Part shown: positions 1-33,896 of the stretch, in pieces | Position numbering within the stretch: the first letter of the stretch is position 1 | How the letters are laid out: each line of letters starts with the position of its first letter | Source: a virus | Lineage: Duplodnaviria; Heunggongvirae; Uroviricota; Caudoviricetes | IMG/VR virus record: IMGVR_UViG_2548876958_000018 | DNA: 33,896 nucleotides | Strand: one strand, 5' to 3' | Position numbers and translations under genes: made by a program | The notes under the pieces: model-generated | Databases searched by the model: none | What the model was told of the DNA's origin: nothing | The model's input: the letters and a program-made list of their open reading frames with translations, nothing else

Positions 1-318
1 ATGAAAAAGATAGCTGCTATATCATTAATTAGTATTTTTATTATGTCTGGTTGTGCTGTGCATAATGATGAGACAAGTATCGGTAAATTTGGTCTTGCAT
101 ATAAAAGTAATATTCAGCGTAAACTCGATAACCAATACTACACCGAAGCCGAAGCTTCTTTAGCCAGGGGCAGAATATCTGGTGCAGAAAATATAGTAAA
201 AAATGATGCAGCCCATTTCTGTGTTACTCAGGGCAAAAAAATGCAGATAGTTGACCTGAAGACAGAAGGTGCAGGATTACATGGCGTCGCTCGTCTGACA
301 TTCAAATGTGGAGAGTGA
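1..318 (+). CDS. yegR: small secreted lipoprotein, host flank (YegR-like, 105 aa)
   Basis: 105-aa ORF starting at ATG at position 1; hydrophobic signal peptide with lipobox-like IMSGC; lies outside the left att repeat. Symbol is from recollection of the E. coli yegR-cyaR-yegQ neighbourhood, not verified. Confidence 0.5.
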   Translation: MKKIAAISLISIFIMSGCAVHNDETSIGKFGLAYKSNIQRKLDNQYYTEAEASLARGRISGAENIVKNDAAHFCVTQGKKMQIVDLKTEGAGLHGVARLTFKCGE

Positions 319-582: not shown

Positions 583-1596
583 TTACTCTACTGTGGACAC
601 TGTGTGGACACTCTCGGCCTCAGTACCACCTCTTAGCGGATTAAGAGAAATGGCGTCCTGAAGGTACTCTGGCGCAAAATGAGCGTAAACCATAGTTTGC
701 TCAATCCGCGTGTGACCTAGTATCCGTTGTAGCGTGATAATACTTCCTCCATTAATCATGAAATGAGTGGCAAAGCTGTGCCTTAGTGCATGTGTGGCTT
801 GCCCCATTGGCAAATCCGGTTTTATTGCTTTCATTGTTCGTCTGAAGCGAGGGTAATCAGCATCAGGGAATAAAAAACCTCGTTTGTTATCCGCGATCAT
901 TTTGGCAACAGCCTCTGAGATCGGGACGGTGCGTGGTTTGTTTGTTTTCGTTTTAACAAACGTGACGCGGTTATGGATGATATTTTCTGCTTTCAAACGA
1001 GCTGCTTCTCCCCAACGTGCTCCAGTACTCAGGCAAAGAATCGCAATCTTTTTGTTGTCGCCGTCAAGAGCAGCAAGCAGTAAGGCAATTTCTTCCTGCG
1101 TGAGATAGCCTGTGTCTGGTTTTTCCTCCTTAAGCCTTTTTGTCCCTCTGATAGGGTGCTCACCAAAGAATAACTCCGCTTCAATCAGGGCTGTAAACAT
1201 GCCGCTAATACATGTTAAATCACGATTGATACTCGAAGGTTTAATACCCTGACTTCTTCGGGTGGCGCAGTACTGGCTGATAAGCGATTTCGTAATTTGA
1301 AATGCGCATGGGTCATTCGTTATTTTTGTGAAGATTTCAATTTTTCCAAGATTAGATTTCCCATGCTCTTCGTGTTTACCCTTTAAATCCCACCAGATCT
1401 GTGTCAGCTCCGACAGACGTCGCTTGTCTGTTGGTTTTGATAGCCATTCTTTATTGTGGTGGTTGTACAACGTGTATTTCTCGAAAGCGACAGCTTCGCT
1501 TTTCTTATCAAACTTCCTACGGATGCGTTTTCCATTACGTCCAGTAGGGCGGATGTCCACTTCATATCGACCATCATCGAGTTTTTTGATTGCCAT
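583..1596 (-). CDS. int: tyrosine integrase (P2 Int-like, 337 aa)
   Basis: 337-aa ORF ending ~80 bp from attL core; C-terminal tyrosine-recombinase boxes HALRHSFATH and GHTRIEQTMVYAH; co-oriented with the repressor as in P2. Confidence 0.9.
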   Translation of the reverse strand: MAIKKLDDGRYEVDIRPTGRNGKRIRRKFDKKSEAVAFEKYTLYNHHNKEWLSKPTDKRRLSELTQIWWDLKGKHEEHGKSNLGKIEIFTKITNDPCAFQITKSLISQYCATRRSQGIKPSSINRDLTCISGMFTALIEAELFFGEHPIRGTKRLKEEKPDTGYLTQEEIALLLAALDGDNKKIAILCLSTGARWGEAARLKAENIIHNRVTFVKTKTNKPRTVPISEAVAKMIADNKRGFLFPDADYPRFRRTMKAIKPDLPMGQATHALRHSFATHFMINGGSIITLQRILGHTRIEQTMVYAHFAPEYLQDAISLNPLRGGTEAESVHTVSTVE

Positions 1597-1711: not shown

Positions 1712-2011
1712 TTAACCAGTCTTTTGACCGGAGTGGGGCGACGTTGTTTCGTTTTGCCCAAAGTGTGCGAGAGCGGGCGCAATTTGCCCGGACTCAGGAG
1801 CGATCTGATTGGTCATGAACCATAAAGTGTATTTGGTGAATTGTGGGGTCTGCAGGATGTTCATCATGACATCTGTTGGAGGTGTTGAACGACCACTTTC
1901 ATAGTAACTCAGCGTGCCATACGGAACCCCTGTTAAATCAGCAAGTTGTTGTCTGCTCAAATACTCTGATTTTCGCATTAAGACTATCTTCTCGCTTATC
2001 GTGTTTGACAT
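1712..2011 (-). CDS. C: immunity repressor C (99 aa)
   Basis: 99-aa ORF upstream of int on the same strand, divergent from cox; size and position match P2 C. Confidence 0.8.
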   Translation of the reverse strand: MSNTISEKIVLMRKSEYLSRQQLADLTGVPYGTLSYYESGRSTPPTDVMMNILQTPQFTKYTLWFMTNQIAPESGQIAPALAHFGQNETTSPHSGQKTG

Positions 2012-2044
2012 GGTGTTTAGATCTCAATAGTATTTAGTTTAGAT
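2005..2044 (+). promoter_or_regulatory. candidate early promoter Pe with repressor operator repeats
   Basis: TTGACA at 2005..2010, 17-bp spacer, TAGTAT at 2028..2033; direct repeats GTTTAGAT at 2015..2022 and 2037..2044 (22 bp apart) flank the -10, the arrangement described for P2 C operators; a third TTTAG copy at 2052..2058. Confidence 0.45.
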
Positions 2045-2125
2045 GTAGATTGTTTAGTGCTTGGATGTGGGCACTAAAAGGCATTATAAGACATTAAACG
2101 CAATTCATGAGGGCTAGAGGACGAC

Positions 2126-2401
2126 ATGAGCAAGCAAGTAACACTCATGACTGATGCGATTCCTTATCAGGAGTTCGCAAAACTAATAGGAAAATCGACA
2201 GGAGCGGTTCGTCGGATGATCGATAAAGGAAAGCTGCCTGTAATTGATATGACCGATCCACAATCAGCTTCAGGTCGTGCAGGTGAATATTGGGTATACC
2301 TTCCGGCATGGAATAACGGACTAAAACTGGCTTATGAAAGCCGACCTAAAGAGATTCGTGACGGCTGGTTGATGTGGTTAGGTCTCGGTGAACCACGTTA
2401 A
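2126..2401 (+). CDS. cox: Cox-like excisionase / switch repressor (91 aa)
   Basis: 91-aa ORF, first gene of the rightward early operon, divergent from C. Confidence 0.8.
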   Translation: MSKQVTLMTDAIPYQEFAKLIGKSTGAVRRMIDKGKLPVIDMTDPQSASGRAGEYWVYLPAWNNGLKLAYESRPKEIRDGWLMWLGLGEPR

Positions 2402-2411
2402 GGAGAACCGT

Positions 2412-2582
2412 ATGAATGAGCCTCGTTGTATTGCTCAGTTACTGCGTAACGAAAGCCCCAGGGCGATTGACTTCACCATCACCCACGGTAAGGGGCGTAA
2501 GGGAATCATTATCCGCACCAAAAAACAGAGTCCGTTAAAAAAGGCTCTGACCTTTCTGAAAAGCCGGAGGGTATGGAAATGA
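2412..2582 (+). CDS. small early protein (P2 orf78 position)
   Basis: ATG at 2412 preceded by AGGAG at 2401..2405; basic 56-aa product; the track start at 2388 lacks an RBS and overlaps the cox end. Confidence 0.45.
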   Translation: MNEPRCIAQLLRNESPRAIDFTITHGKGRKGIIIRTKKQSPLKKALTFLKSRRVWK

Positions 2583-3079
2583 CAGTGATGACGCTCAATC
2601 TCGTTGAAAAACAGCCAGCAGCTATGCGCCGGATAATTGGTAAGCATCTTGCCGTTCCTCGCTGGCAGGATACATGTGATTATTATAATCAGATGATGGA
2701 GCGCGAACGGCTAACAGTTTGCTTTCATGCGCAGTTAAAACAGCGTCACGCAACGATGCGTTTTGAAGAAATGAACGACGTCGAACGTGAACGACTGGTA
2801 TGTGCAATTGATGAATTGCGTGGGGCATTCTCAAAACGTCGTCAGGTTGGTGCAAGTGAGTATGCATATATTAGTTTCTTAACAGTCAGTCAGCGTCGTA
2901 CTTTATTTATGCATGCCGGATTGACTGAAAAAGAATTTAACCAGCCATACTGGCGAATTAATGAAGAGTCATGTTACTGGCGTGATGCTTTATTCCGTGC
3001 ATTACGTGAATTATTCAGCCTGTTTGAGTATGCACCGACAATTCTGACGTCGGTAAAACCAGAGCAATATCTGCATTAA
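2579..3079 (+). CDS. B: replication protein B-like (166 aa)
   Basis: ATG at 2579 lies 8 nt after GGAGG (2566..2570) and overlaps the upstream stop (ATGA); 166 aa matches P2 gpB; synteny cox-B-A. Confidence 0.7.
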   Translation: MTVMTLNLVEKQPAAMRRIIGKHLAVPRWQDTCDYYNQMMERERLTVCFHAQLKQRHATMRFEEMNDVERERLVCAIDELRGAFSKRRQVGASEYAYISFLTVSQRRTLFMHAGLTEKEFNQPYWRINEESCYWRDALFRALRELFSLFEYAPTILTSVKPEQYLH

Positions 3080-3142
3080 GTAATTAACCAGAGTTTTTAA
3101 CGCACTTAATCGTGCGGGGCTTCTTTTTGCCTGGAGAAAGTT

Positions 3143-3367
3143 ATGCATACAGTTTCTGAAAATCAGTGCGGTAAATACGCATTACTGCTGCAACAGGCCA
3201 GAACCGAAGCACAGGCCGACGCTGCGACGCGCTTTTCTTCTCATCTTGATGCCATGATTCGCCACATCACAAAGGCGGAGTTATCCCGCGTGGAGATAGT
3301 CGAGCTGCTCAGTCAGGAGTCGGAAAAATTTCACAATATCGGATTGTCTCGCGGGGAGGTGCTTTGA
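3143..3367 (+). CDS. small early protein (P2 orf80 position)
   Basis: 74-aa ORF with GGAG 6 nt upstream; translationally coupled to next ORF. Confidence 0.5.
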
Positions 3368-3669
3368 TGTCCTGTTCTCGTTCAGTTGTATTACTGAATA
3401 ACGCCTTAAAAATCGCCGTTATGAAAAATGGCGATTTGTCTCTTATTCAACTTGGTCTTGATAAAGAAAAACGCGAAATAACTGAGTCTGTTATCGCGAT
3501 TTATCAGAACGAATTAAACCTCCTGTCTGATGTGGTCAATTTGCTTGTTAAACGCGCTGTGTTTCACAAGCAAATCTCCTCCGTGGATGAACTGACGAAA
3601 TTAACGACAGAAATCGCCAGCTATTGCGCTGATGAATTTAAAAACCTTAACGACAAAAGGAACTGGTAA
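3367..3669 (+). CDS. small early protein (P2 orf81 position)
   Basis: ATG at 3367 after GGAGG (3355..3359); TGATG overlap with the upstream stop. Confidence 0.5.
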   Translation: MSCSRSVVLLNNALKIAVMKNGDLSLIQLGLDKEKREITESVIAIYQNELNLLSDVVNLLVKRAVFHKQISSVDELTKLTTEIASYCADEFKNLNDKRNW

Positions 3670-3893
3670 TGCCGGACAACGTAGATTTTATTCAGGCACA
3701 ACAGGCTGAATTACTGGAGCGCCAGATTAACGCGGCAAGGGTAAAACATTGCGGTGCTTCTGCGATGGTTTGCGAAGAGTGTGACGCGCCAATACCTGCT
3801 GCCCGTCGTGCGGCTTATCCGTCAGCCACGCGTTGTGTTTCCTGTCAGTCAGTTTTTGAAGCAAAAAACAAACATTACCGGAGAACGGCATGA
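3669..3893 (+). CDS. DksA/TraR-family C4 zinc-finger protein (P2 orf82 position)
   Basis: 74-aa ORF with CEEC...(17 aa)...CVSC four-cysteine motif typical of TraR/DksA zinc fingers; TAATG coupling. Confidence 0.6.
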   Translation: MPDNVDFIQAQQAELLERQINAARVKHCGASAMVCEECDAPIPAARRAAYPSATRCVSCQSVFEAKNKHYRRTA

Positions 3894-4165
3894 GTATTCG
3901 TATTGAAATTGGCGAACGTTATGTCGTTACCAGTGACAGCTTTCAGTTTATTCTCCACGAGAAAAAGAGAGCTGAAAGCGGTAAAAACGCCGGTCAGGAA
4001 TGGCTGGCGGTGGTTGGTTATTACCCGAAATTAAGCCAGCTCGTTTCCGGCCTGATGCATCACGATATTCTGACCGGAAGCGCAAAGTCTTTTGCTGATT
4101 TAAACGCGCAGGTTGAGCAACTCAGCAAGCGTTGTTCAGAGGCTTTTGGCTCATATGGCCGTTAA
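3890..4165 (+). CDS. small early protein (P2 orf83 position)
   Basis: 91-aa ORF with RBS GGAGA; stop overlaps the A start. Confidence 0.5.
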   Translation: MSIRIEIGERYVVTSDSFQFILHEKKRAESGKNAGQEWLAVVGYYPKLSQLVSGLMHHDILTGSAKSFADLNAQVEQLSKRCSEAFGSYGR

Positions 4166-6427
4166 AGCCTCCGGGCGTTTTGTCCCTCCGTCAGCATTTG
4201 CCGCAGGCACCGGTAAGACGTTTACCGGTGCTTATGCATGGAACGCGCCACGCGAGGCCGTCGGGCGCGAAAGACCCCTTACACGTGACGAGATGCGTCA
4301 GGTGCAAGGTGTTTTATCCACGATTAACCGCCTGCCTTACTTTTTGCGCTCGCTGTTTACTTCACGCTATGACTACATCCGGCGCAATAAAAGCCCGGTG
4401 CACGGGTTTTATTTCCTCACATCCACTTTTCAGCGTCGTTTATGGCCGCGCATTGAGCGTGTGAATCAGCGCCATGAAATGAACACCGACGCGTCGTTGC
4501 TGTTTCTGGCAGAGCGTGATCACTATGCGCGCCTGCCGGGAATGAATGACAAGGAGCTGAAAAAGTTTGCCGCCCGTATCTCATCGCAGCTTTTCATGAT
4601 GTATGAGGAACTCAGCGATGCCTGGGTGGATGCGCATGGCGAGAAAGAATCACTGTTTACGGATGAGGCTCAGGATCACCTGTATGGTCATGTTGCTGGC
4701 GCTGCACGAGCTTTCAATATTTCCCCTCTCTACTGGAAAAAATACCGTAAAAGACAGATGACCACGAGGCAGGCATATTCTGCCATTGCCCGTCTGTTTA
4801 ACGATGAGTGGTGGACTCATCAGCTTAAAGGCCAGCGTATGCGCTGGCATGAAGCGTTACTGATAGCTGTCGGGGAGGTCAATAAAGACCGTTCTCCTTA
4901 TGCCAGTAAACACGCCATTCGTGATGTGCGTGCGCGCCGCCAGGCAAATCTGGAATTTCTTAAATCGTGTGACCTTGAAAACAGGGAAACCGGCGAGCGC
5001 ATCGACCTTATCAGTAAGGTGATGGGCAGTATTTCTAATCCTGAAATTCGCCGGATGGAGCTGATGAACACCATTGCCGGTATTGAGCGTTACGCCGCTG
5101 CAGAGGGTGATGTGGGGATGTTTATCACGCTGACCGCGCCGTCAAAGTATCACCCGACACGTCAGGTAGGAAAAGGCGAAAGTAAAACCGTGCAGCTTAA
5201 TCACGGCTGGAACGATGAGGCATTTAATCCAAAGGATGCGCAGCGTTATCTCTGCCGTATCTGGAGCCTGATGCGCACGGCATTCAAGGATAATGATTTA
5301 CAGGTCTACGGTTTGCGTGTCGTCGAGCCACACCACGACGGAACGCCGCACTGGCATATGATGCTTTTTTGTAATTCACGCCAGCGTAACCAGATTATCG
5401 AAATCATGCGTCGCTATGCGCTCAAAGAGGATGGCGACGAAAGAGGAGCCGCGCGAAACCGTTTTCAGGCAAAACACCTTAACCGGGGCGGTGCTGCGGG
5501 ATATATCGCGAAATACATTTCAAAAAACATCGACGGCTATGCACTGGATGGTCAGCTCGATAACGACACCGGCAGGCCGCTGAAAGACACTGCAGCGGCT
5601 GTTACCGCATGGGCGTCAACGTGGCGCATCCCGCAATTTAAAACGGTTGGCCTGCCGACAATGGGGGCTTACCGTGAACTACGCAAATTGCCGCGCGGCG
5701 TCAGCATTGCTGATGAGTTTGACGAGCGCGTCGAGGCTGCACGCGCCGCCGCAGACAGTGGTGATTTTGCGTTGTATATCAGCGCGCAGGGTGGGGCACA
5801 AATGTCCCGCGCGATTGTCAGACTGTCAGAGTCGCCCGTAGCCCGTCGGATGAAGTTAACGAGTACGAGGAAGAAGTCGAGAGAGTGGTCGGCATTTACG
5901 CGCCGCATCTCGGCGCGCGTCATATTCATATCACCAGAACGACGGACTGGCGCATTGTGCCGAAAGTGCCGGTCGTTGAGCCTTTGACTTTAAAAAGCGG
6001 CATCGCCGCGCCTCGGAGTCCTGTCAATAACTGTGGAAAGCTCACCGGTAGTGATGTTTCGTTACCGGCTCCCACACCTTCTGAGCACGCCGCCGCAGTG
6101 CTTAATCTGGTTGATGACGGTGTTATCGAATGGAATGACCAGGAGGTCGTGAGGGCGCTCAGGGGCGCATTAAAACACGACCTGAGAACACCAAACCGTC
6201 AGCAAAGAAGCGGAAGCCCGTTAAAACCGCATGAAATAGCGCCATCGGCCAGACTGACCCGGTCGGAACGAATGCAAATTACCCGTATCCGCGTTGACCT
6301 TGCTCAGAACGGTATCAGGCCGCAGCGATGGGAGCTTGAGGCGCTGGCGCGTGGGGCAACTGTAAATTACGACGGGAGAAGCTTCAGTTATCCTGTTATA
6401 TGTGATTGGAGAGCGTATGAATTATGA
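4155..6427 (+). pseudogene. A: rolling-circle replication initiator A (HUH endonuclease), interrupted by a -1 frameshift
   Basis: ATG at 4155 overlaps the upstream stop (ATGGCCGTTAA). HUH-type motif TPHWHMMLF and catalytic tyrosine motif GYIAKYISK are present. The reading frame switches between 5765 and 5987: the upstream frame runs to a stop at 5987, while the downstream frame (GTG 5885..6427) is open from 5765. Combined length of about 757 codons is close to P2 gpA (761 aa, from memory). Confidence 0.8.
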
Positions 6428-6482
6428 GATTGTGATAAAAAGTAAATAATTAATATAATGCAATTGCTTAACTGTTTTAAAA

Positions 6483-6513
6483 GGGACAACGTAGTTGTGA
6501 ACTATATTGTCCC
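6483..6513. terminator. hairpin between convergent A and endonuclease genes (possible bidirectional terminator)
   Basis: GGGACAA (6483..6489) pairs with TTGTCCC (6507..6513) across a 17-nt loop in an AT-rich spacer; no clean U-run, so weak. Confidence 0.25.
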
Positions 6514-6520
6514 GGGAGTA

Positions 6521-7576
6521 TTAATTTTTAAATATGGATTGTATGTATTCTATAGTGCTATCTTTAGCTCTGATGTCTTTTAAAGTGTTATTTATGAAAT
6601 CTATTATTCTGTCATTACTTAATAGTGGCGATAACGCATAACATGTTGTTGTGAATGTCATGACGTCACTAAAGCTTAGTGAAACACCTTTTGTCGCAGC
6701 GTTCTCAATCGCAAGAGACTCATCAATATCTAAGTTTGTTGCTCTTGGCCCTTTAAGGAAGATAACTTTTGAAATCCCGGATGCAGATGCTTTTGAAACG
6801 GCGTGATTAACATCTTGATAATTAAATGGTTTGTCTTTCACTTCTATAGAAAGGAAAACTATATCATCATGATATACATCTATGTCCAGTATCTCTTTTG
6901 AGGAGCTACCGGCCTGATTGACGGGATGTGCTTTTATTATCCATCCTCTTTGTTCACCTAATAAATGTAACGAAATTGCGGCAGCAATCGCGCATGTTTC
7001 TCCATCACAAGGATGAGATATAATATTATAAATAATCTTATGGAAATCAAAATTAATTGAGTTCGGCGTTATAACTCTATTGGTTCGCTGTAGGGTAAAA
7101 TATAATGCAATAACAAGCATTTCATAAGCTAAGGTTTGGGTTGTTGCTGCATGTAATATATCAATTGAAAGTTGTTGTAAAACCTTATCATTTCCTCTGC
7201 GCACAGGGTTATCAGAGGAGTGGAGCATGTAACGAGCTGGTTTATTTAGAAATGGCTCATTTGATGCGCCTAACTTACCCTCTAAAAATGGGCCTTCTAC
7301 TTTGCCTACTATTACCGAATGACATAAACTCCTTGCATCATAGGCTCCGTCTACGGGGGCATTAGCTTGTAAAGCCAGAGGGTTAACTCTAGGGTCTGTT
7401 GCTTTTGCAAGTAAACCAGTAATAAGTATATATCTGTATGTAAGGTGGGTGCCTAAAATTACATTTTGAATGGAGACCCATTGATTATTTGTTTTGTAAT
7501 CAGTTAATTTTTTTGCATCGTTGATTGCATTTATAATTACATTATAGGCTTGCTCATGATTTACTAATACTTTCAT
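6521..7576 (-). CDS. putative Type II restriction endonuclease (351 aa)
   Basis: AT-rich ORF directly downstream of, and overlapping by 23 bp, the HTH controller gene; divergent from the methyltransferase; PD-(D/E)xK-like signature DIDVYHDDIVFLSIEVKDK; RBS AAGGA 5 nt before the ATG. Confidence 0.6.
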   Translation of the reverse strand: MKVLVNHEQAYNVIINAINDAKKLTDYKTNNQWVSIQNVILGTHLTYRYILITGLLAKATDPRVNPLALQANAPVDGAYDARSLCHSVIVGKVEGPFLEGKLGASNEPFLNKPARYMLHSSDNPVRRGNDKVLQQLSIDILHAATTQTLAYEMLVIALYFTLQRTNRVITPNSINFDFHKIIYNIISHPCDGETCAIAAAISLHLLGEQRGWIIKAHPVNQAGSSSKEILDIDVYHDDIVFLSIEVKDKPFNYQDVNHAVSKASASGISKVIFLKGPRATNLDIDESLAIENAATKGVSLSFSDVMTFTTTCYALSPLLSNDRIIDFINNTLKDIRAKDSTIEYIQSIFKN

Positions 7577-7868
7577 AGGTGTCCTTTAGTAAGATATCCA
7601 TTGGTAGACCTAATCGGCTTGCAACCACCTCTAATAATTCAAATAGTTCTAAAGCATCTAATCGCCTTTCAAAGCTTTCGATTTTAGATATATCTGATTG
7701 TGATAATCCTAGAAAAATGGCCAATTCTGACTGCGAAAGAGAAGCTTCTTTGCGTAGTTTGGTGAGAAGCTGGACTAGGCACCTGTATCTATGATCATGT
7801 ATAGTTGGTTGTCGTTTTGCCATGTGGTTTAGAAGGTGATTGATTGTGTGTCGATCCTTACCTATCAT
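7554..7868 (-). CDS. controller (C) protein of the R-M system, XRE-family HTH
   Basis: 104-aa ORF with helix-turn-helix segment LSQSELAIFLGLSQSDISKIE; sits in the gap between divergent R and M genes, upstream of and overlapping R; alternative start at Met16 (7823). Confidence 0.65.
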   Translation of the reverse strand: MIGKDRHTINHLLNHMAKRQPTIHDHRYRCLVQLLTKLRKEASLSQSELAIFLGLSQSDISKIESFERRLDALELFELLEVVASRLGLPMDILLKDTYESISKS

Positions 7869-7873
7869 TGGTT

Positions 7874-7892
7874 TTATTCCAAAATCGAATAA
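7874..7892. promoter_or_regulatory. candidate operator (C-box-like inverted repeat) between controller and methyltransferase starts
   Basis: TTATTC-N7-GAATAA dyad at 7874..7892, immediately upstream of the controller start (7868) and before the methyltransferase GTG (7907). Confidence 0.3.
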
Positions 7893-7906
7893 TTGGTGCT
7901 AAAGAA

Positions 7907-8998
7907 GTGAACAAAATTTCAGCGGTGAGCTTATTTACTGGGGCAGGAGGGATGGATGTCGGTTTCTCTAATGCCGGGTTCCGAACAGTTTGGGCCAATG
8001 ATATAGATAAGGATGCATGTGATACATTTAAGCTTAATCATGAATCACCTGTTTTTTGTGGTGATATTGATGAGATGCTAAGTGAATTGTCTGGGCTGAA
8101 AAATATAGGTTGTGTTTTTGGTGGGCCTCCATGCCAAGGATTTTCTGTGGCAGGGAAAATGGACGCTCATGATCCACGTAGTAAGCTGGTTATGTCATTC
8201 ATGCGGGCGGTGGATATAATTCAACCAGAATGCTTTGTTATGGAGAATGTTAAGGCTTTAGCACAGTTGTCCAAATTTGAACCAGTTAGGTGTGAACTGT
8301 TTAAGATGGCTGAAAAGTCAGGCTATCGTTCAGCCTTGCTGGTGCTGAATTCTAAAGATTTTGGCGTTCCTCAGAATAGGGAACGTATGTTTTTTATAGG
8401 GTTTCGTTCCGAAAATGATGTGAAACGAGTTGAGGCGGCGATAAAAAAATACCAATATCTTTCGCCAACAGTTGGTGAGATTATTCGGCCTTTAGGGCGA
8501 GCGGGTAATCCAAATAATTCAAGAGTCTGTAATGCAAGGATTACAAATGCTGCTAAGCCAGTATTACGGAAGTCACCTTACGCGGGAATGATGTTTAACG
8601 GGCAGGGAAGACCAATTAACCCGAATGGGTATGCTTCAACTATAGCTGCTTCTATGGGGGGGAATAGGACACCAATTATTGATGAAGAACACCTTTATGA
8701 TGGCTCAACAAGTTATGTTGAGACTTATCATAATCATCTAATGAATGGTGGTGAGCCAAAAGATATGCACGATGTACCTAGTCGTTTACGTCGACTAACG
8801 ATAGATGAGGCTCTTTTGATTCAAACATTCCCGAGTAATTATGTCTTTGTGGGGAAAAATTCGTCAATTTGGCGTCAGATAGGGAATGCTGTGCCTTGTA
8901 AATTGGCGCAGGCTGTTGCTGCAGGGGTTTTGGATGTCCTTACTGGTAAAACTATTAATGTTCAAAAGAGTCAAACAGAGTTGAGTTTGAATTCGTAA
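7907..8998 (+). CDS. DNA (cytosine-5)-methyltransferase
   Basis: Motif I LFTGAGGMDVGF, motif IV GPPCQGFS, motif VI ENV, motif VIII QNRERMFFIG. Start taken as the in-frame GTG at 7907, which leaves a 330-bp gap to the R start; the track's TTG at 7844 (RBS-like AAGGTG 5 nt upstream) is an alternative that would overlap the controller gene. Confidence 0.9.
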   Translation: MNKISAVSLFTGAGGMDVGFSNAGFRTVWANDIDKDACDTFKLNHESPVFCGDIDEMLSELSGLKNIGCVFGGPPCQGFSVAGKMDAHDPRSKLVMSFMRAVDIIQPECFVMENVKALAQLSKFEPVRCELFKMAEKSGYRSALLVLNSKDFGVPQNRERMFFIGFRSENDVKRVEAAIKKYQYLSPTVGEIIRPLGRAGNPNNSRVCNARITNAAKPVLRKSPYAGMMFNGQGRPINPNGYASTIAASMGGNRTPIIDEEHLYDGSTSYVETYHNHLMNGGEPKDMHDVPSRLRRLTIDEALLIQTFPSNYVFVGKNSSIWRQIGNAVPCKLAQAVAAGVLDVLTGKTINVQKSQTELSLNS

Positions 8999-18593: not shown

Positions 18594-19379
18594 TTATGAG
18601 TGATTTTTATTTGATGCTTTGTATTCTACAACCTTCTTATTGGCGTAAAGGAATTTTGTATATGACAGGAATATAACCAGACCTGAAATGAAATAGATGA
18701 GGGATATTATTAATAATGCTTTTTTTTGGCTGTTATTATCTTTAATCTCCTGACTTAACCATTCCGAGTCCTCCTCGTTTAGCTGTAAGAGCTTATTGCA
18801 GGCGATCTCAGGAAGTGTGTCTTTTATAAATACGTTTCGTAGCCTCTTGCAATCGGCAAGGCTATAAGTTTTATTGAATTCAACTGTTTTATTGTTGAAG
18901 GATAAAAGAACTTTGTCACTATAAACATAGTACATCATATTTTTATATGGTATGCCTATGGCATCTCTTACTATAACGGATTGTTTGTTGTGTATATAAC
19001 ATGCGAAGAGAATATAAATAATGCTGGACAGAATTACAATTATTGTTTTAATTATGTGTGGTGGTTTTGTTATGTCACCCCAGAAGCGAGTAAGAAAAAA
19101 ATACGATGTTTTTAGTTTTCCATCAATCAGCCCCTGCTGTATCATTCTCACATCTTCGATGCCTGATACATTGATTCCGTTAATTATTTTAAATAGTTGA
19201 ATGTCGCGCCATTTTTTGTCGAGCATTTTTAACTTTCTGTCTGAATACTCAAAATTGAAATGATGTGCAATAAACCTCATAAGATTACTTTTACCAAAGG
19301 TAATAAATGTTAATGCTATTAATAAAAATAGATACAAAGAGATAAACCACCACGCATTAGTCACATTATCACTGAACAT
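18594..19379 (-). CDS. AT-rich moron: 261-aa membrane protein with three predicted TM helices, unknown function (P2 orf30 position)
   Basis: Antisense to the flanking tail operon; strongly AT-rich unlike neighbours; hydrophobic segments near residues 10-28, 112-130 and 221-240; no recognisable catalytic motif. Confidence 0.7.
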   Translation of the reverse strand: MFSDNVTNAWWFISLYLFLLIALTFITFGKSNLMRFIAHHFNFEYSDRKLKMLDKKWRDIQLFKIINGINVSGIEDVRMIQQGLIDGKLKTSYFFLTRFWGDITKPPHIIKTIIVILSSIIYILFACYIHNKQSVIVRDAIGIPYKNMMYYVYSDKVLLSFNNKTVEFNKTYSLADCKRLRNVFIKDTLPEIACNKLLQLNEEDSEWLSQEIKDNNSQKKALLIISLIYFISGLVIFLSYTKFLYANKKVVEYKASNKNHS

Positions 19380-19462
19380 TACGCTCTCCTCGAATGTTGT
19401 ATGGTCGTTCTACAAATGAATCCAGATAGCATAACTTTTATATATTGTGCAATCTCACACGC

Positions 19463-20098
19463 ATGAACACTCTCGCAAATATTCAGGAACTCGCGCGCGC
19501 ACTGCGCAACATGATTCGTACCGGCCTTGTCGTCGAAACCAACCTTAAAGCCGGTCGCTGCCGTGTGCAGACCGGTGGCATGTGCACTGACTGGCTTCAG
19601 TGGCTGACCCATCGTGCCGGACGTTCGCGCACATGGTGGGCACCTTCCGTGGGGGAGCAGGTGCTGATTCTGGCTGTGGGCGGTGAACTCGACACGGCGT
19701 TCGTTCTGCCGGGGATTTATTCCGGCGATAACCCCGCGCCGTCTGCGTCGGCGGATGCCCTGCATATCCGTTTCCCTGACGGGGCGGTGATTGAGTATGA
19801 ACCCGAAACCAGTGCACTCACGGTAAGCGGAATTAAAACGGCCAGCGTGACGGCTTCTGATTCTGTTACTGCCACGGTGCCGGTGGTCATGGTGAAAGCA
19901 TCAACCCGCGTCACCCTGGACACACCGGAGGTGGTCTGCACCAACAGGCTGATTACCGGCACGCTGGAAGTGCAGAAGGGCGGGACGATGCACGGCAACA
20001 TTGAACACACCGGCGGTGAACTCTCATCAAACGGTAAGGTACTGCATACCCATAAACACCCCGGCGACAGCGGCGGCACAACCGGGAGCCCTCTATGA
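19463..20098 (+). CDS. V: baseplate central spike protein (211 aa)
   Basis: ATG at 19463 gives 211 aa; first gene of the V-W-J-I-H-G operon. Confidence 0.8.
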   Translation: MNTLANIQELARALRNMIRTGLVVETNLKAGRCRVQTGGMCTDWLQWLTHRAGRSRTWWAPSVGEQVLILAVGGELDTAFVLPGIYSGDNPAPSASADALHIRFPDGAVIEYEPETSALTVSGIKTASVTASDSVTATVPVVMVKASTRVTLDTPEVVCTNRLITGTLEVQKGGTMHGNIEHTGGELSSNGKVLHTHKHPGDSGGTTGSPL

Positions 20099-21888: not shown

Positions 21889-23988
21889 ATGAGCACAAAA
21901 TTCAGAACCGTTATCACCACTGCTGGTGCAGCAAAGCTGGCAGCGGCAACCGCGCCGGGAGGGCGGAAGGTCAACATTACCACGATGGCCGTCGGGGATG
22001 GCGGTGGTAAATTGCCTGTCCCGGATGCCGGACAGACCGGGCTTATCCACGAAGTCTGGCGACATGCGCTGAACAAAATCAGCCAGGACAAACGAAACAG
22101 TAATTATATTATCGCAGAGCTGGTTATTCCGCCGGAGGTGGGCGGTTTCTGGATGCGTGAGCTTGGCCTGTACGATGATGCTGGAACGTTAATTGCCGTG
22201 GCGAACATGGCTGAAAGTTATAAGCCAGCTCTTGCCGAAGGCTCAGGGCGTTCGCAGACCTGCCGCATGGTCATCATCGTCAGCAGTGTGGCCTCAGTGG
22301 CGCTGACCATTGACACCACAACGGTGATGGCAACGCAGGATTACGTTGATGACAAAATTGCAGAACATGAACAGTCACGACGTCACCCGGACGCCTCGCT
22401 GACCGCCAAAGGTTTTACTCAGTTAAGCAGTGCGACCAACAGCACGTCTGAAACACTCGCCGCAACACCAAAAGCGGTAAAAGCAGCATATGACCTTGCT
22501 AACGGGAAATACACTGCACAGGACGCCACCACCGCGCGAAAAGGCCTTGTCCAGCTCAGTAGCGCCACCAACAGCGATTCTGAAACGCTTGCGGCAACGC
22601 CAAAGGCGGTTAAGACAGCGTATGACCTTGCTAACGGGAAATACACTGCACAGGATGCCACCACAGCGCGAAAAGGTCTTGTCCAGCTCAGTAGCGCCAC
22701 CAACAGTGATTCTGAAACGCTGGCTGCAACACCAAAAGCGGTGAAGTCTGCCTATGACAATGCTGAAAAACGTCTTCAGAAAGATCAGAACGGCGCGGAT
22801 ATTCCTGATAAAGATCGCTTCCTGAGTAACATTAATGTTTACAGCAAAGGCGAGGTGGATAAGAAAAAAGGAATGCGGCTGTACGTATTTAACGCGCCGT
22901 CTAATGCTGTTGGTGGAAAGTGGTATCCAGTTATTTTCCGGCGTTCCACTGGTAGCACTGGCGAACTGGCTTCCAGAGTGGTTATTACAACCACATCTGC
23001 CGGTGGTGATTACGCAATGAATAACTGCGAATTTAATGGAATGGTAATGCCCGGAGGTTGGACTGATCGTGGTTCATATGCAGCAGGTTATTTTTCGACA
23101 TATCAGACTAATGAGCGCGCAATCCATTCCATTGTAACAAGCCTGAAAGAAGATGATGTATGCAGCGTTTTTTACGTTGAAGGCAGGGCTTTTCCTGTGC
23201 GAGTTTTTGCCGAAGAAGGGCTAACGGTTATTGTTCCAACTCAGGATTATACCGTCGGTCAAACAACATATAAGTGGGGAGCAACTAATCCCGCGACAGA
23301 AAGCACGAACGCACAAGCCATTCTGGATTTTAACAATGGGCGAGGGTTTTATTGTTCTCACTCAATATTCGGTATTAATGCCATTTTTAGCGGAAATCTG
23401 GGGATTGGAACGGCTAATGCCCTGGGTGGAAATTCAATAGTTTTAGGAGATAACGATACCGGGTTTAAACAAAATGGTGATGGGGTGCTGGATGCTTATG
23501 CTAATGGTGTGCATGTATTCCGCTTTATAAATGGTTCAGCAAGATCATTAAAGGGTATTCAGGCTGGGGAAAGTAAGTTCTTCACACTTTCAAGTGCAAA
23601 TACCGCTGCCCGTAATGCATCATTTAACTTGTGGGGAAATTCGTCAAGACCAACTGTTGCAGAGCTTGGTGATGATTCAGGCTGGCATTTCTATAGTCAG
23701 CGAAATACAGATAACTCGGTGATATTTGCTGTAAACGGTCAGATACAACCAAGCAACTGGGATAACATTGATTCCCGATATGTGAAAGATGTTCGGCTTG
23801 GCTCACAGCAATATTATGGTGTGAACAACTGGCAAACATGGAACTTTCAGTGCCCTTCAGGTCATGTATTGTCTGGTATAAATGTTCAGGATACAGGTTC
23901 CAACTCCGCCGATAATATTGCGGGTGTTTATTACAGACCCGTTCAAAAGTATATAAATGGCACATGGTATAATGTAGCGAGCGTTTAA
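21889..23988 (+). CDS. H: tail fiber protein (699 aa), mosaic with internal tandem repeats
   Basis: Large ORF after I; N-terminal part GC-rich like the rest of the phage, C-terminal about 1.2 kb AT-rich with a Gly/Asn/Ser-rich distal domain; followed by the fiber assembly gene. Confidence 0.85.
22423..22758 (+). repeat. in-frame tandem repeat inside H: 132-bp unit, about 2.5 copies
   Basis: 44-aa unit LSSATNS(T/D)[12 protein letters not shown](A/T)[23 protein letters not shown] repeated from 22423, 22555 and 22687, with a few substitutions. Confidence 0.8.
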
Positions 23989-23989
23989 T

Positions 23990-24517
23990 ATGATGCACTT
24001 AAAGAACATAAAAGCGGGTAACACTAAAACACTGGAACAGTATGAGTTAACAAAGAAGCATGGAGTCATCTGGCTTTACACTGAAGACGGGAAAAACTGG
24101 TATGAGGAAGTGAAGAACTTTCAGTCAGACACAATAAAGATTGTTTACGACGAGAATAATATAATTGTCGGCATCACCCGAGATGCTTCAACGCTTAACC
24201 CTGAAGGTTTTAGCGTTGTCGAGGTTCCTGATATTACTGCCAACCGACGTGCTGATGACTCAGGTAAATGGATGTTTAAGGATGGTGCCGTGATTAAGCG
24301 GATTTATACGGCAGACGAACAGCAGCAACTGGCAGAATCACAAAAGGCAACTTTGCTTTCCGAAGCCGAATCCGTGATTTTGCCGCTGGAGCGCGCTGTC
24401 AGGCTGAATATGGCAACAGATGAGGAACGCAGCCGACTGGAAGCATGGGAACGCTACAGCGTTCTGGTCAGCCGTGTGGATCCTGCAAATCCTGAATGGC
24501 CGGAAATGCCGCAATAA
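23990..24517 (+). CDS. G: tail fiber assembly chaperone (175 aa)
   Basis: 175-aa ORF immediately after the fiber gene; P2 gpG position. Confidence 0.75.
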
Positions 24518-24738: not shown

Positions 24739-25332
24739 ATGTTTACTAAGCGACGATTAAAAAATATTAACTGGGAGGCAAGTTCAGTGATTCTTGCTAT
24801 GGTTCTCTTTGCTGGAAATATATTTTATACAAATCATCGTGATGATATAAGCATGGAGGCTGAGAGAGACAGTATCAGAACAATGTTTGCATATGAAATC
24901 GCTAATAACCATCGCGCTCTCACCTTTCTTGATAAAACGAGAAATATTGGCTTTGACGAAAATTCGGAGCATTTTGTTGGCGAGCCTTTTGCCATTAATG
25001 TCAAATCATCAGGGGGACCTCGCTTACAGATTGCATTAAACCAGACTGATAAAGTGTTTAAATCATACTTCAGCGAATTAAGTAAGCTTGATAAAGAGGA
25101 TGTTACTCTTCTTATGGACTATTACCATGAGCAAAGCATCCTGCTGGAGCGTGTAAAATCTACGTTACAGAAGATGAAAAGTGGTAATGATATTAAAGTT
25201 GATATTGATGGTTACTTATTAGAAGAACACTTCATGAATGAGCTTAATCTTTCTAATATTTTGCTTAAACGCTATAGCTATTTATTATCACAGCACGCTA
25301 AAGAACATAAAACAAAAGATTTACATAATTGA
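24739..25332 (+). CDS. AT-rich moron: 197-aa protein with one N-terminal TM anchor, unknown function (P2 Z/fun position)
   Basis: Preceded by a 220-bp AT-rich spacer; N-terminal hydrophobic segment SSVILAMVLFAGNIFY, then a charged, probably helical domain; lies between G and FI. Confidence 0.7.
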   Translation: MFTKRRLKNINWEASSVILAMVLFAGNIFYTNHRDDISMEAERDSIRTMFAYEIANNHRALTFLDKTRNIGFDENSEHFVGEPFAINVKSSGGPRLQIALNQTDKVFKSYFSELSKLDKEDVTLLMDYYHEQSILLERVKSTLQKMKSGNDIKVDIDGYLLEEHFMNELNLSNILLKRYSYLLSQHAKEHKTKDLHN

Positions 25333-31964: not shown

Positions 31965-32045
31965 TATTTTTATTTTATATGTTTGTTTTATAAGGATAAA
32001 TTAACTAAAATGACACCATCAACAAAACCGGAAGAGGTGCTCGCG

Positions 32046-32264
32046 ATGTTTCATTGTCCTTTATGCCAGCATGCCGCACATGCGCGTACAAGTCGCTATA
32101 TCACTGACACGACAAAAGAGCGTTATCACCAGTGTCAGAACGTGAATTGCAGCGCCACGTTCATCACTTATGAGTCGGTACAGCGATACATCGTGAAGCC
32201 GGGAGAAGTCCACGCCGTGAGGCCGCACCCGTTGCCGTCAGGGCAGCAAATTATGTGGATGTGA
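32046..32264 (+). CDS. ogr: late-gene transcription activator Ogr (72 aa zinc finger)
   Basis: ATG at 32046 after GAGGTG; four-Cys motif CPLC...(21 aa)...CQNVNC; last phage gene before attR. Confidence 0.8.
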   Translation: MFHCPLCQHAAHARTSRYITDTTKERYHQCQNVNCSATFITYESVQRYIVKPGEVHAVRPHPLPSGQQIMWM

Positions 32265-32362: not shown

Positions 32363-32390
32363 TAAAAAATAAGCCCGTGTAAGGGAGATT
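32363..32390. repeat. attR core: 28-bp direct repeat overlapping the cyaR 3' terminator
   Basis: identical to 476..503. Confidence 0.85.
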
Positions 32391-32450
32391 ACACAGGCTA
32401 AGGAGGTGGTTCCTGGTACAGCTAGCATTTTATGGGTTATGTTTTTCAGC
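32364..32450 (-). ncRNA. cyaR: CyaR (RyeE) Hfq-dependent small RNA
   Basis: Minus-strand sequence GCTGAAAAACATAACCCATAAAATGCTAGCTGTACCAGGAACCACCTCCTTAGCCTGTGTAATCTCCCTTACACGGGCTTATTTTTT matches the CyaR sequence as I recall it, including the terminator hairpin and U-tail; adjacent to yegQ as in E. coli. Confidence 0.85.
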
Positions 32451-32534
32451 GAAACGGATGATAACCTTAATAAATGCAGCTGTATGTGATCGGTTTCTAA
32501 GAATTTTCCATCCGGGAAAAATAATCGAAATTAA

Positions 32535-33896
32535 TCACTTACCGTGGGGATTACGCGTGGTTTCCCCGGAGAAATTACGCATCAGCAGCGCGTAATTGAG
32601 CTCAAGATCCTGCGGGACCGGGAGCCACACAGTATAACCATCGCCTGGTGCTATCGGCATAGCTTCGCCTTTGGCGTTTTCCATGTGCTCAAGGGTAAAA
32701 TTAATGTTGCCTTGCGGCGTCATCAGCTCAAGGCTGTCGCCAACGGAGAATTTATTTTTCACCGCTACCGCCGCGAGGTCCCCCTTGCGCTCACCGGTAA
32801 ACTCACCAACAAACTGCTGGCGGTCAGAAACTGAATAACCGTATTCGTAGTTCTGATAATCGTCGTGAGTATGACGACGCAGGAAACCTTCGGTATAGCC
32901 ACGATGCGCCAGACCTTCCAGAGTTTCCAGCAGGCTGGTATCGAACGGTTTTCCCGCAGCGGCGTCATCGATAGCTTTGCGGTAAACCTGTGCGGTGCGT
33001 GCACAATAGTAGAAAGATTTGGTACGACCTTCGATTTTCAGCGAATGCACGCCCATTTTGGTCAGGCGTTCTACATGGGCGATGGCGCGCAGATCTTTCG
33101 AGTTCATGATGTAAGTGCCGTGCTCATCTTCAAACGCGGTCATATACTCGCCCGGACGCTGGGCCTCTTCGATCATAAACACTTTGTCGGTTGGTGCGCC
33201 GATACCCAGCGTCGGCTCAACATTTTGCACCGGAATCGGCTCGTACTTGTGTACGATGTTGCCAACATCATCTTCTTTCCCTTCCTGGACGTTGTACTCC
33301 CAGCGGCAGGCGTTGGTGCAGGTGCCCTGGTTCGGGTCGCGCTTGTTGATATAGCCAGAGAGCAGGCAGCGACCGGAGTAGGCCATGCACAGCGCGCCGT
33401 GAACGAAGATCTCGATCTCCATATCCGGCACCTGATTGCGGATCTCTTCAATCTCTTCCAGCGACAGCTCGCGAGAGAGGATCACGCGGGTCAGGCCCAT
33501 TTGCTGCCAGAATTTCACCGTCGCCCAGTTCACGGCGTTAGCCTGCACCGAAAGGTGGATCGGCATTTCAGGGAAGTGCTCACGCACCAGCATAATCAGC
33601 CCTGGATCGGACATAATCAGCGCATCCGGCCCCATTTCCACCACCGGTTTCAGGTCACGGATAAAGGTTTTCAGCTTGGCGTTGTGCGGTGCAATGTTGA
33701 CCACGACATAAAACTTTTTCCCCAGCGCGTGGGCTTCATTGATGCCGAGCTGAAGATTTTCGTGGTTGAATTCGTTGTTGCGCACACGCAGGGAATAACG
33801 CGGCTGGCCCGCATAAACAGCATCTGCGCCATAAGCGAAAGCGTAACGCATATTTTTCAGCGTTCCCGCCGGGGAAAGGAGTTCCGGTTTAAACAT
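32535..33896 (-). CDS. yegQ: U32-family peptidase YegQ (453 aa), host gene
   Basis: Complete 453-aa ORF starting with ATG at the window edge (MFKPELLSPAGTLKNMRYAFAYGADAVYAGQPRYSLR...); GC-typical host codon usage; next to cyaR. Confidence 0.85.
   Translation of the reverse strand: MFKPELLSPAGTLKNMRYAFAYGADAVYAGQPRYSLRVRNNEFNHENLQLGINEAHALGKKFYVVVNIAPHNAKLKTFIRDLKPVVEMGPDALIMSDPGLIMLVREHFPEMPIHLSVQANAVNWATVKFWQQMGLTRVILSRELSLEEIEEIRNQVPDMEIEIFVHGALCMAYSGRCLLSGYINKRDPNQGTCTNACRWEYNVQEGKEDDVGNIVHKYEPIPVQNVEPTLGIGAPTDKVFMIEEAQRPGEYMTAFEDEHGTYIMNSKDLRAIAHVERLTKMGVHSLKIEGRTKSFYYCARTAQVYRKAIDDAAAGKPFDTSLLETLEGLAHRGYTEGFLRRHTHDDYQNYEYGYSVSDRQQFVGEFTGERKGDLAAVAVKNKFSVGDSLELMTPQGNINFTLEHMENAKGEAMPIAPGDGYTVWLPVPQDLELNYALLMRNFSGETTRNPHGK

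Follow-up and report, generated by a model that had tools for sequence, protein, structure and literature searches.

The orf82 gene of a P2-like prophage encodes a TraR-family C4 zinc-finger protein that very probably binds host RNA polymerase

We analysed a stretch of 33,896 nucleotides (the window) that sequence comparison identifies as a P2-like (Peduovirus) prophage, and an open reading frame in it that corresponds to orf82 of the Pe early operon. A megablast comparison with phage records showed that the DNA from 2000 to 6500 is 97.5% identical to bacteriophage P2 and 99.4% identical to Peduovirus P24C9. Mapping on the P2 annotation, for which AF063097 was the reference, gave the order cox, B, orf80, orf81, orf82, orf83 and A for the early operon (Table 1). 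A terminator-like hairpin lies in the gap between B and orf80, and expression of the genes from orf80 to A therefore requires readthrough of this hairpin.

Table 1. Features of the window, with the DUF5405 genes of two related elements (positions in the last two rows are those of the elements named)
Feature	Position	Strand	Basis or remark
int	583..1596	-	
C, repressor gene	1712..2011	-	
Pe early promoter, TTGACA-17-TAGTAT	2005..2033	+	promoter scan; coincides with the annotated Pe -35/-10 in P2 AF063097
cox	2126..2401		P2 annotation
B	2573..3079		P2 annotation
terminator-like hairpin, gap between B and orf80	3101..3128	+	the putative rho-independent terminator annotated in P2, 26980..27007
orf80, DUF2732 small protein	3143..3367	+	PF10809
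orf81, DUF5405, translationally coupled to orf82	3367..3669	+	PF17399 E=4.9e-34; P2 annotation
Shine-Dalgarno AAGGA of orf82	3657..3661	+	7 nt 5' of ATG; within the 3' end of orf81
orf82, 74-aa TraR-family C4 zinc-finger protein	3669..3893	+	PF01258, TIGR02419, near-identity to P2 Orf82
orf82 codons 3-8, D-N-V-D-F-I, N-terminal tip motif	3675..3692	+	
orf82 zinc ribbon, C35-x2-C38-N17-C56-x2-C59	3771..3845	+	motif scan; Pfam stretch 35-64
orf83, second DUF5405 protein	3890..4165	+	PF17399 E=2e-13; P2 annotation
A	4155..6427		
SacI-family endonuclease	6521..7576	-	PF09566, 2.7e-76
small HTH controller-like protein	7554..7868	-	
C5 cytosine methyltransferase	7844..8998	+	
ogr	31983..32264		
CyaR/RyeE sRNA gene	32367..32452	-	Rfam RF00112, 100.7 bits
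U32-peptidase gene	32535..33896	-	
DUF5405 gene before A, phage 186 (L004)	3306..3578		
DUF5405 gene before A, Serratia prophage (L003)	4348..4629		

On the right, the prophage meets the host chromosome just past ogr, at the CyaR/RyeE and U32-peptidase genes; the gene order of E. coli K-12 suggests that the peptidase is yegQ-like. A small protein with a lipoprotein-like signal at its start (MKKIAAISLISIFIMSGC) is encoded in the left flank (1..318). Where P2 has tin and old, the window has a type II restriction-modification cassette (6521..8998); orf91 of P2 is absent from the window, and the similarity to P2 ends at about 6395. Two adjacent open reading frames of 261 and 128 aa, the stop of one overlapping the start of the other, lie on the minus strand at 18594..19765, amid plus-strand open reading frames that we take, from the gene order of P2, to be tail and baseplate genes, and no significant Pfam or PADLOC match was found for either of the two. 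Their position is presumably that of orf30 in P2, and in that case they would be a candidate cargo or defence island. An open reading frame of 197 aa at 24739..25332 (+), which had no Pfam or PADLOC match, lies directly 3' of the large open reading frames at 21889..24517, the presumed tail-fibre genes, and we assume that it may occupy the Z/fun slot of P2.

Comparison of gene A with that of P2 showed CACA instead of CA at 5797..5800, a 2-nt insertion that causes a +2 frameshift and splits A into open reading frames at 4113..5987 and 5885..6427. The two extra nucleotides are absent from P2, from P24C9 and from the closest E. coli chromosome (CP019256, 99.9% identical). The insertion reflects either a replication-defective prophage or a sequencing error.

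The orf82 reading frame comprises 74 codons from an ATG start to a TGA stop, and its product has the sequence MPDNVDFIQAQQAELLERQINAARVKHCGASAMVCEECDAPIPAARRAAYPSATRCVSCQSVFEAKNKHYRRTA. The cysteines of Orf82 are found in CEEC at residues 35-38 and in CVSC at residues 56-59, with a spacer of exactly 17 residues between the two pairs. A regular-expression scan of the six frames of the whole window showed that the pattern C-x2-C-x17-C-x2-C occurs a single time, in orf82, and this motif is not a matter of chance because it lies inside a match to the Pfam model zf-dskA_traR. The zinc ribbon encloses P41, P43, R46 and R47, which correspond to P43, P45, R48 and R49 of TraR. The stop codon of orf81 overlaps the start codon of orf82 in the sequence TAATG, and the stop codon of orf82 overlaps the start codon of orf83 in the sequence ATGA. 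No RNA gene was found in or near 3669..3893 with Rfam at the gathering threshold or with ARAGORN. Two overlapping open reading frames, at 3727..3891 (-) and 3754..3906 (+), were without support and were set aside. The first-pass annotation had described a 74-aa protein with a CxxC-N17-CxxC zinc ribbon, located in the early operon between B and A; the protein, its reading frame and the four cysteines C35, C38, C56 and C59 are as described, and the gene does lie between B and A, while it adjoins neither of them, being preceded by orf80 and orf81 and followed by orf83.

The neighbours Orf81 and Orf83 are both matched by DUF5405, although BLASTP gives no alignment between them; if they are paralogues, their sequences would make them very distant ones. 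Both carry the PHROGs label 'replication initiation protein', and we found no experimental basis for this name of DUF5405 proteins. Phage 186 encodes two further proteins between its TraR homologue and A (L004 2725..3306 and 3578..4579), an RNase T-like exonuclease (Orf81) and one resembling PAPS reductase (Orf84), both of which are lacking in P2 and in the window. Because 186 has genes here that P2 and the window lack, this interval is a variable cargo site in a conserved frame.

Sequence models and searches place Orf82 in the TraR branch of the DksA/TraR family. The Pfam model PF01258 (zf-dskA_traR) matched Orf82 with E=3.8e-11 and 43.2 bits, against a cutoff of 24.9, and the NCBIfam model TIGR02419 (C4_traR_proteo, phage/conjugal plasmid C-4 type zinc finger protein) with 76.6 bits, against a cutoff of 59.7; the latter match covers residues 3-64 of Orf82 and model positions 1-64 of 64. 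A match of 1e-31 was obtained with phrog_54, 'DksA-like zinc-finger protein'. A sequence search of the PDB with Orf82 returned TraR (5w1s_M, E=7.5e-10), YbiI (4.7e-7) and DksA (0.083). Comparison of Orf82 with F-plasmid TraR by BLASTP showed 38% identity over residues 1-70, with D3, D6, the prolines, the arginine pair and the four cysteines in register.

Orthology to the individual members of the family was rejected in each case. The equivalog model of F TraR (NF010268) gave 43.6 bits against a cutoff of 108, so that Orf82 is a homologue and not an ortholog of the conjugal TraR, while that of YbiI (NF008243) gave 45.3 bits against a cutoff of 96. The models of DksA gave 20 against 115.5 bits (TIGR02420) and 28.1 against 105 (NF033459), and Orf82 has only 74 aa and a single N-terminal helix.

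With HMMER, 1.84 billion representative proteins were searched exhaustively, which gave 667 relatives of Orf82, and conservation was read from an alignment of 112 proteins, namely 110 representatives of 60-85 aa, Orf82 and F TraR. In this comparison, 101 of the 112 proteins have D3 and 101 have D6, R46 occurs in 110, R47 in 99, P43 in 98 and E64 in 108, and Orf82 has all six; each cysteine of the zinc ribbon is present in 111-112 of the 112. Position 8 is occupied by alanine in 76 of the aligned proteins, by valine in 15, by serine in 6, by isoleucine in 5 and by glycine in 3. The tip of Orf82 reads DxxDxI, so that D3 and D6 fit the DxxDxA consensus while isoleucine stands at position 8 instead of alanine. 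This Ile8 is a variant within the TraR family and no ground for exclusion from it, because P2 Orf82, which has the same I8, is active though weaker than TraR. In addition to D3/D6 and the arginine pair, Orf82 shows the length (about 73 aa), the C4 motif and the proline residues expected of a TraR-family protein.

Comparison of Orf82 with P2 Orf82 (AAD03304.1 / NP_046793.1) showed 72 identical residues out of 74, the differences being E10A and L33M, together with two synonymous changes in the gene; both substitutions fall at positions that are variable in the alignment of 112 proteins. The protein is 100% identical to that of the Peduovirus phages 11W and P24C9, both of which are sequenced isolates. 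A tblastn search (E<=1e-3) found orf82 in 167 phage records. The 3.1-kb segment from 3300 to 6450, which includes orf82, had matches in 1725 of 5426 complete E. coli genomes, and at least 80% of the segment is carried by 1184 of them. Among seven P2-like orf82 sequences, dN/dS was below 1 in 21 of 21 pairs (0.05-0.71), each pair having few differing sites.

An AlphaFold2 model of Orf82 was built on 14 homologues and reached a mean pLDDT of 71, which is moderate confidence. The first homologue search had given mainly near-identical proteins and frameshifted fragments, and five of these sequences (P0007, P0012, P0014, P0028 and P0095) were dropped before modelling. The helices of the model span residues 5-25, 44-49 and 57-68, and these predicted helices match the three elements seen in TraR by cryo-EM, which are an N helix (2-27), a globular domain (28-57) and a C helix (58-73) (PMC6970531). 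A Foldseek search of the PDB with the model returned TraR first (6n57_M, E=1.5e-4, probability 1.00), followed by DksA, TraR 5w1s, YbiI, the Chlamydia Dks protein and DksA2, and no unrelated fold in the PDB had a significant score. Global superposition of the model on TraR was poor (TM about 0.49, rmsd 11 Å), probably because the orientation of the helices is undefined when an elongated protein is modelled alone, without RNA polymerase. The predicted fold is taken as supporting evidence.

The literature already describes this gene, the family to which it belongs and what its product does biochemically, for a protein with 2 differences in 74 residues. The five TraR homologues tested by Gopalkrishnan et al. 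2022 (mBio 13:e00952-22, PMC9239242) included P2 Orf82. When expressed from pTrc with IPTG, P2 Orf82 complemented a dksA deletion on minimal medium (PMC9239242). The purified protein inhibited rrnB P1 with an IC50 of 250 nM without ppGpp, against about 50 nM for TraR, and was thus about 5-fold less potent than TraR on this promoter in vitro (PMC9239242); the authors explained part of this difference by the absence of the A8 of DxxDxA. P2 Orf82 competed with labelled DksA for RNA polymerase at 0.65-1 µM, equal to TraR (PMC9239242), and this competition places P2 Orf82 at the DksA site on RNA polymerase. Transcription of thrABC and argI was activated about 2- to 4-fold by P2 Orf82, as it was by all of the homologues except lambda Orf73 (PMC9239242). 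Overexpression led to growth arrest according to Liu, Saha and Haggard-Ljungquist 1993, as this work is cited in PMC9239242. The authors of the 2022 study placed orf82 under Pe along with the replication genes and proposed that it diverts host resources during lytic growth (PMC9239242). We found no functional work on Orf82 in the literature beyond the 2022 mBio paper.

These publications and the results above bear on the remaining claims of the first-pass annotation. Conservation in P2-like phages agrees with the 167 phage records and with the dN/dS values below 1, and the resemblance to DksA/TraR that a structural comparison was to look for was seen, TraR being the first Foldseek match and DksA and YbiI coming after it. 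The suggestion that such a protein can bind RNA polymerase and reprogram host transcription has been demonstrated for P2 Orf82, which is 97% identical (PMC9239242). The description as functionally under-studied is outdated for the biochemistry, because the comparison with DksA/TraR and the transcription assays on rRNA promoters were published in 2022 (PMC9239242), while it still applies to the role of the protein during P2 infection.

Taken as a whole, orf82 is very probably a gene of a P2-like prophage for a TraR-family protein that binds host RNA polymerase and not DNA. We infer its residue-level contacts from the solved structures of TraR with RNA polymerase and from conservation. The N-terminal helix (residues 5-25, approximately) would enter the secondary channel and bring D3 and D6 near the active site; neither TraR nor lambda Orf73 functions without these two residues. 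The globular domain of the zinc ribbon, with R46 and R47, would sit at the channel entrance on the beta-prime rim helices and beta-prime Si3, while the C-terminal helix (about residues 57-68) would contact the beta lobe-Si1 and rotate it. Comparison of the residues of the Si3 interface showed that E46, R49 and K50 of TraR are A44, R47 and A48 in Orf82, so that the arginine alone is kept; the E46A substitution in TraR makes inhibition mildly weaker and halves activation. The conformational changes would destabilise short-lived open complexes and would thereby inhibit the promoters of rRNA and ribosomal-protein genes, whereas promoters of the thrABC and argI type would be stimulated, all of these effects being expected without ppGpp.

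At entry into lytic growth, orf82 is expressed from Pe in one operon with B and A, the replication genes, and its product probably curbs the synthesis of host ribosomes and so makes resources available to the phage. In lambda, Orf73 slows the growth of the host and gives a larger burst (PMC9239242), and it is from this homologue that we infer a benefit of Orf82 to P2 in vivo; the homologue in phage 186, Orf80, is annotated as not essential. The activity of the variant in the window, with A10 and M33, is predicted from that of P2 Orf82, and the same sequence is present in isolated phages. Given the +2 frameshift in gene A, this copy of orf82 may sit in a replication-defective element.

This reading was weighed against several others. 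It seems rather unlikely that the main targets of Orf82 would be promoters of the phage (Pe, Pc, ogr and late) instead of the rRNA promoters of the host. F TraR raises transcription from F-element promoters in vitro, as reported in PMC9239242, whose authors suggested that other homologues might regulate the promoters of their own phages, and orf82 lies in the operon that controls the lysis-lysogeny switch. However, effects on host promoters were shown directly for P2 Orf82, and an action on phage promoters is compatible with the preferred explanation, to which it would add without replacing it. We consider it unlikely that the physiological form of Orf82 is a complex with one of its co-translated neighbours, Orf80 (DUF2732), Orf81 or Orf83 (DUF5405), and we give equally little weight to the proposal that such a partner would strengthen, target, gate or switch off the action of Orf82 on RNA polymerase, by analogy with QisA-TraR-QtiQ of VP882. 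In VP882, TraR (gp61) forms a complex with QisA, the product of an adjacent co-transcribed gene, the two together cause a growth arrest far stronger than that by TraR alone, and QtiQ inactivates the complex (bioRxiv 10.64898/2026.07.27.740977). The stop/start overlaps across orf81, orf82 and orf83 in the window would fit such a partnership, as would the weaker inhibition by P2 Orf82 alone than by TraR and the order DUF2732, TraR homologue, DUF5405 and A, which is kept in phage 186 (Orf79, Orf80 and Orf83) and in the Serratia prophage L003, whose TraR homologues are only about 50% identical. A DUF2732 family member lies directly 5' of the TraR homologue in the 186-type phages, Orf79 being that of 186. 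On the other side, P2 Orf82 needs no partner for its activity as a purified protein in vitro or for complementation of a dksA null mutant, and conserved order in a compact operon is no proof of physical interaction. QisA (gp60, 199 aa) is unrelated to DUF2732 and DUF5405, and because it belongs to neither family, the partner idea draws on analogy and gene order only; a search for relatives of QisA in P2 gave no Pfam match for QisA and no BLASTP alignment with gpB.

It is very unlikely that orf82 is an unexpressed passenger, without current function, in a decaying element. The essential, cis-acting gene A is split by the 2-nt insertion (CA within 5797..5800), which would point to decay, but the frameshift may be an artefact of sequencing or may have arisen very recently, orf82 is intact with its ribosome-binding site, the Pe promoter and the repressor gene C all in place, and the Orf82 protein is identical to that of viable phages. 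An accessory role in P2 DNA replication, in which the zinc finger would bind DNA or replication proteins and the effect on RNA polymerase would be incidental, appears extremely improbable. It is suggested by the location of orf82 among the replication genes B and A, by the label 'replication initiation protein' that PHROGs gives to the DUF5405 neighbours, and by the VP882 preprint, which notes that DksA promotes DNA replication and that TraR proteins are unstudied in that respect (bioRxiv 10.64898/2026.07.27.740977). However, TraR and DksA bind RNA polymerase and do so without DNA binding, according to PMC9239242, the residues that contact RNA polymerase are conserved in Orf82, the homologue in 186 was annotated as dispensable, and the PHROG labels of the neighbours are names only.

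With the action on host RNA polymerase as the preferred explanation, orf82 receives a secure annotation as the gene of a TraR-family RNA polymerase regulator, which is neither DksA nor YbiI nor a DNA-binding factor. An effect of Orf82 on host physiology after derepression of the prophage could be broadly relevant, because the 3.1-kb segment is common in the species, most of it being found in at least 1184 of the 5426 complete E. coli genomes. The residual interest of the gene lies in its role in vivo and in a possible partnership with the conserved DUF2732 and DUF5405 neighbours, and such a partner module, if true, would give a first function to these two widespread families.

Comparison with known systems showed that P2 Orf82 and Orf82 of the window share the gene, the operon position, the DxxDxI tip and the zinc ribbon, whereas the prophage of the window differs from P2 in its cargo genes and in its frameshifted A. 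F-plasmid TraR (PDB 5W1S and 6N57) resembles Orf82 in its length (73 aa instead of 74), its three-part architecture and its C4 spacing, with D3, D6, P41/P43, R46/R47, Q60 and E64 of Orf82 in register, and in its independence from ppGpp, which was shown for P2 Orf82. It differs in that its A8 is isoleucine and its E46/K50 are alanines in Orf82, and in that the traR gene lies in a conjugative transfer operon while orf82 belongs to the early operon of a phage. Lambda Orf73 and VP882 Orf61 (TraR_VP882) are TraR homologues of phages, with early lytic expression and inhibition of rRNA promoters; both have divergent sequences, and neither lambda nor VP882 was among the organisms and matches listed by the tblastn search with orf82 (E<=1e-3). 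Lambda Orf73 shows little activation of thrABC and argI, whereas P2 Orf82 activates both. TraR of VP882 acts together with QisA, and QtiQ inactivates it; no such partners are known for P2.

The two E. coli proteins of the family are more distant. YbiI (PDB 2KGO) is likewise small, its length being 88 aa by that of the NF008243 model, and its C4 zinc ribbon belongs to the same family, and orf82 is labelled 'TraR/YbiI family' in some phage records. DksA binds at the same secondary-channel site as Orf82, carries a DxxD tip and a C4 zinc finger as Orf82 does, and regulates the same set of promoters, whereas it has 151 aa, a two-helix coiled coil and a need of ppGpp for full activity, in place of the single N-terminal helix and the ppGpp-independent action of Orf82.
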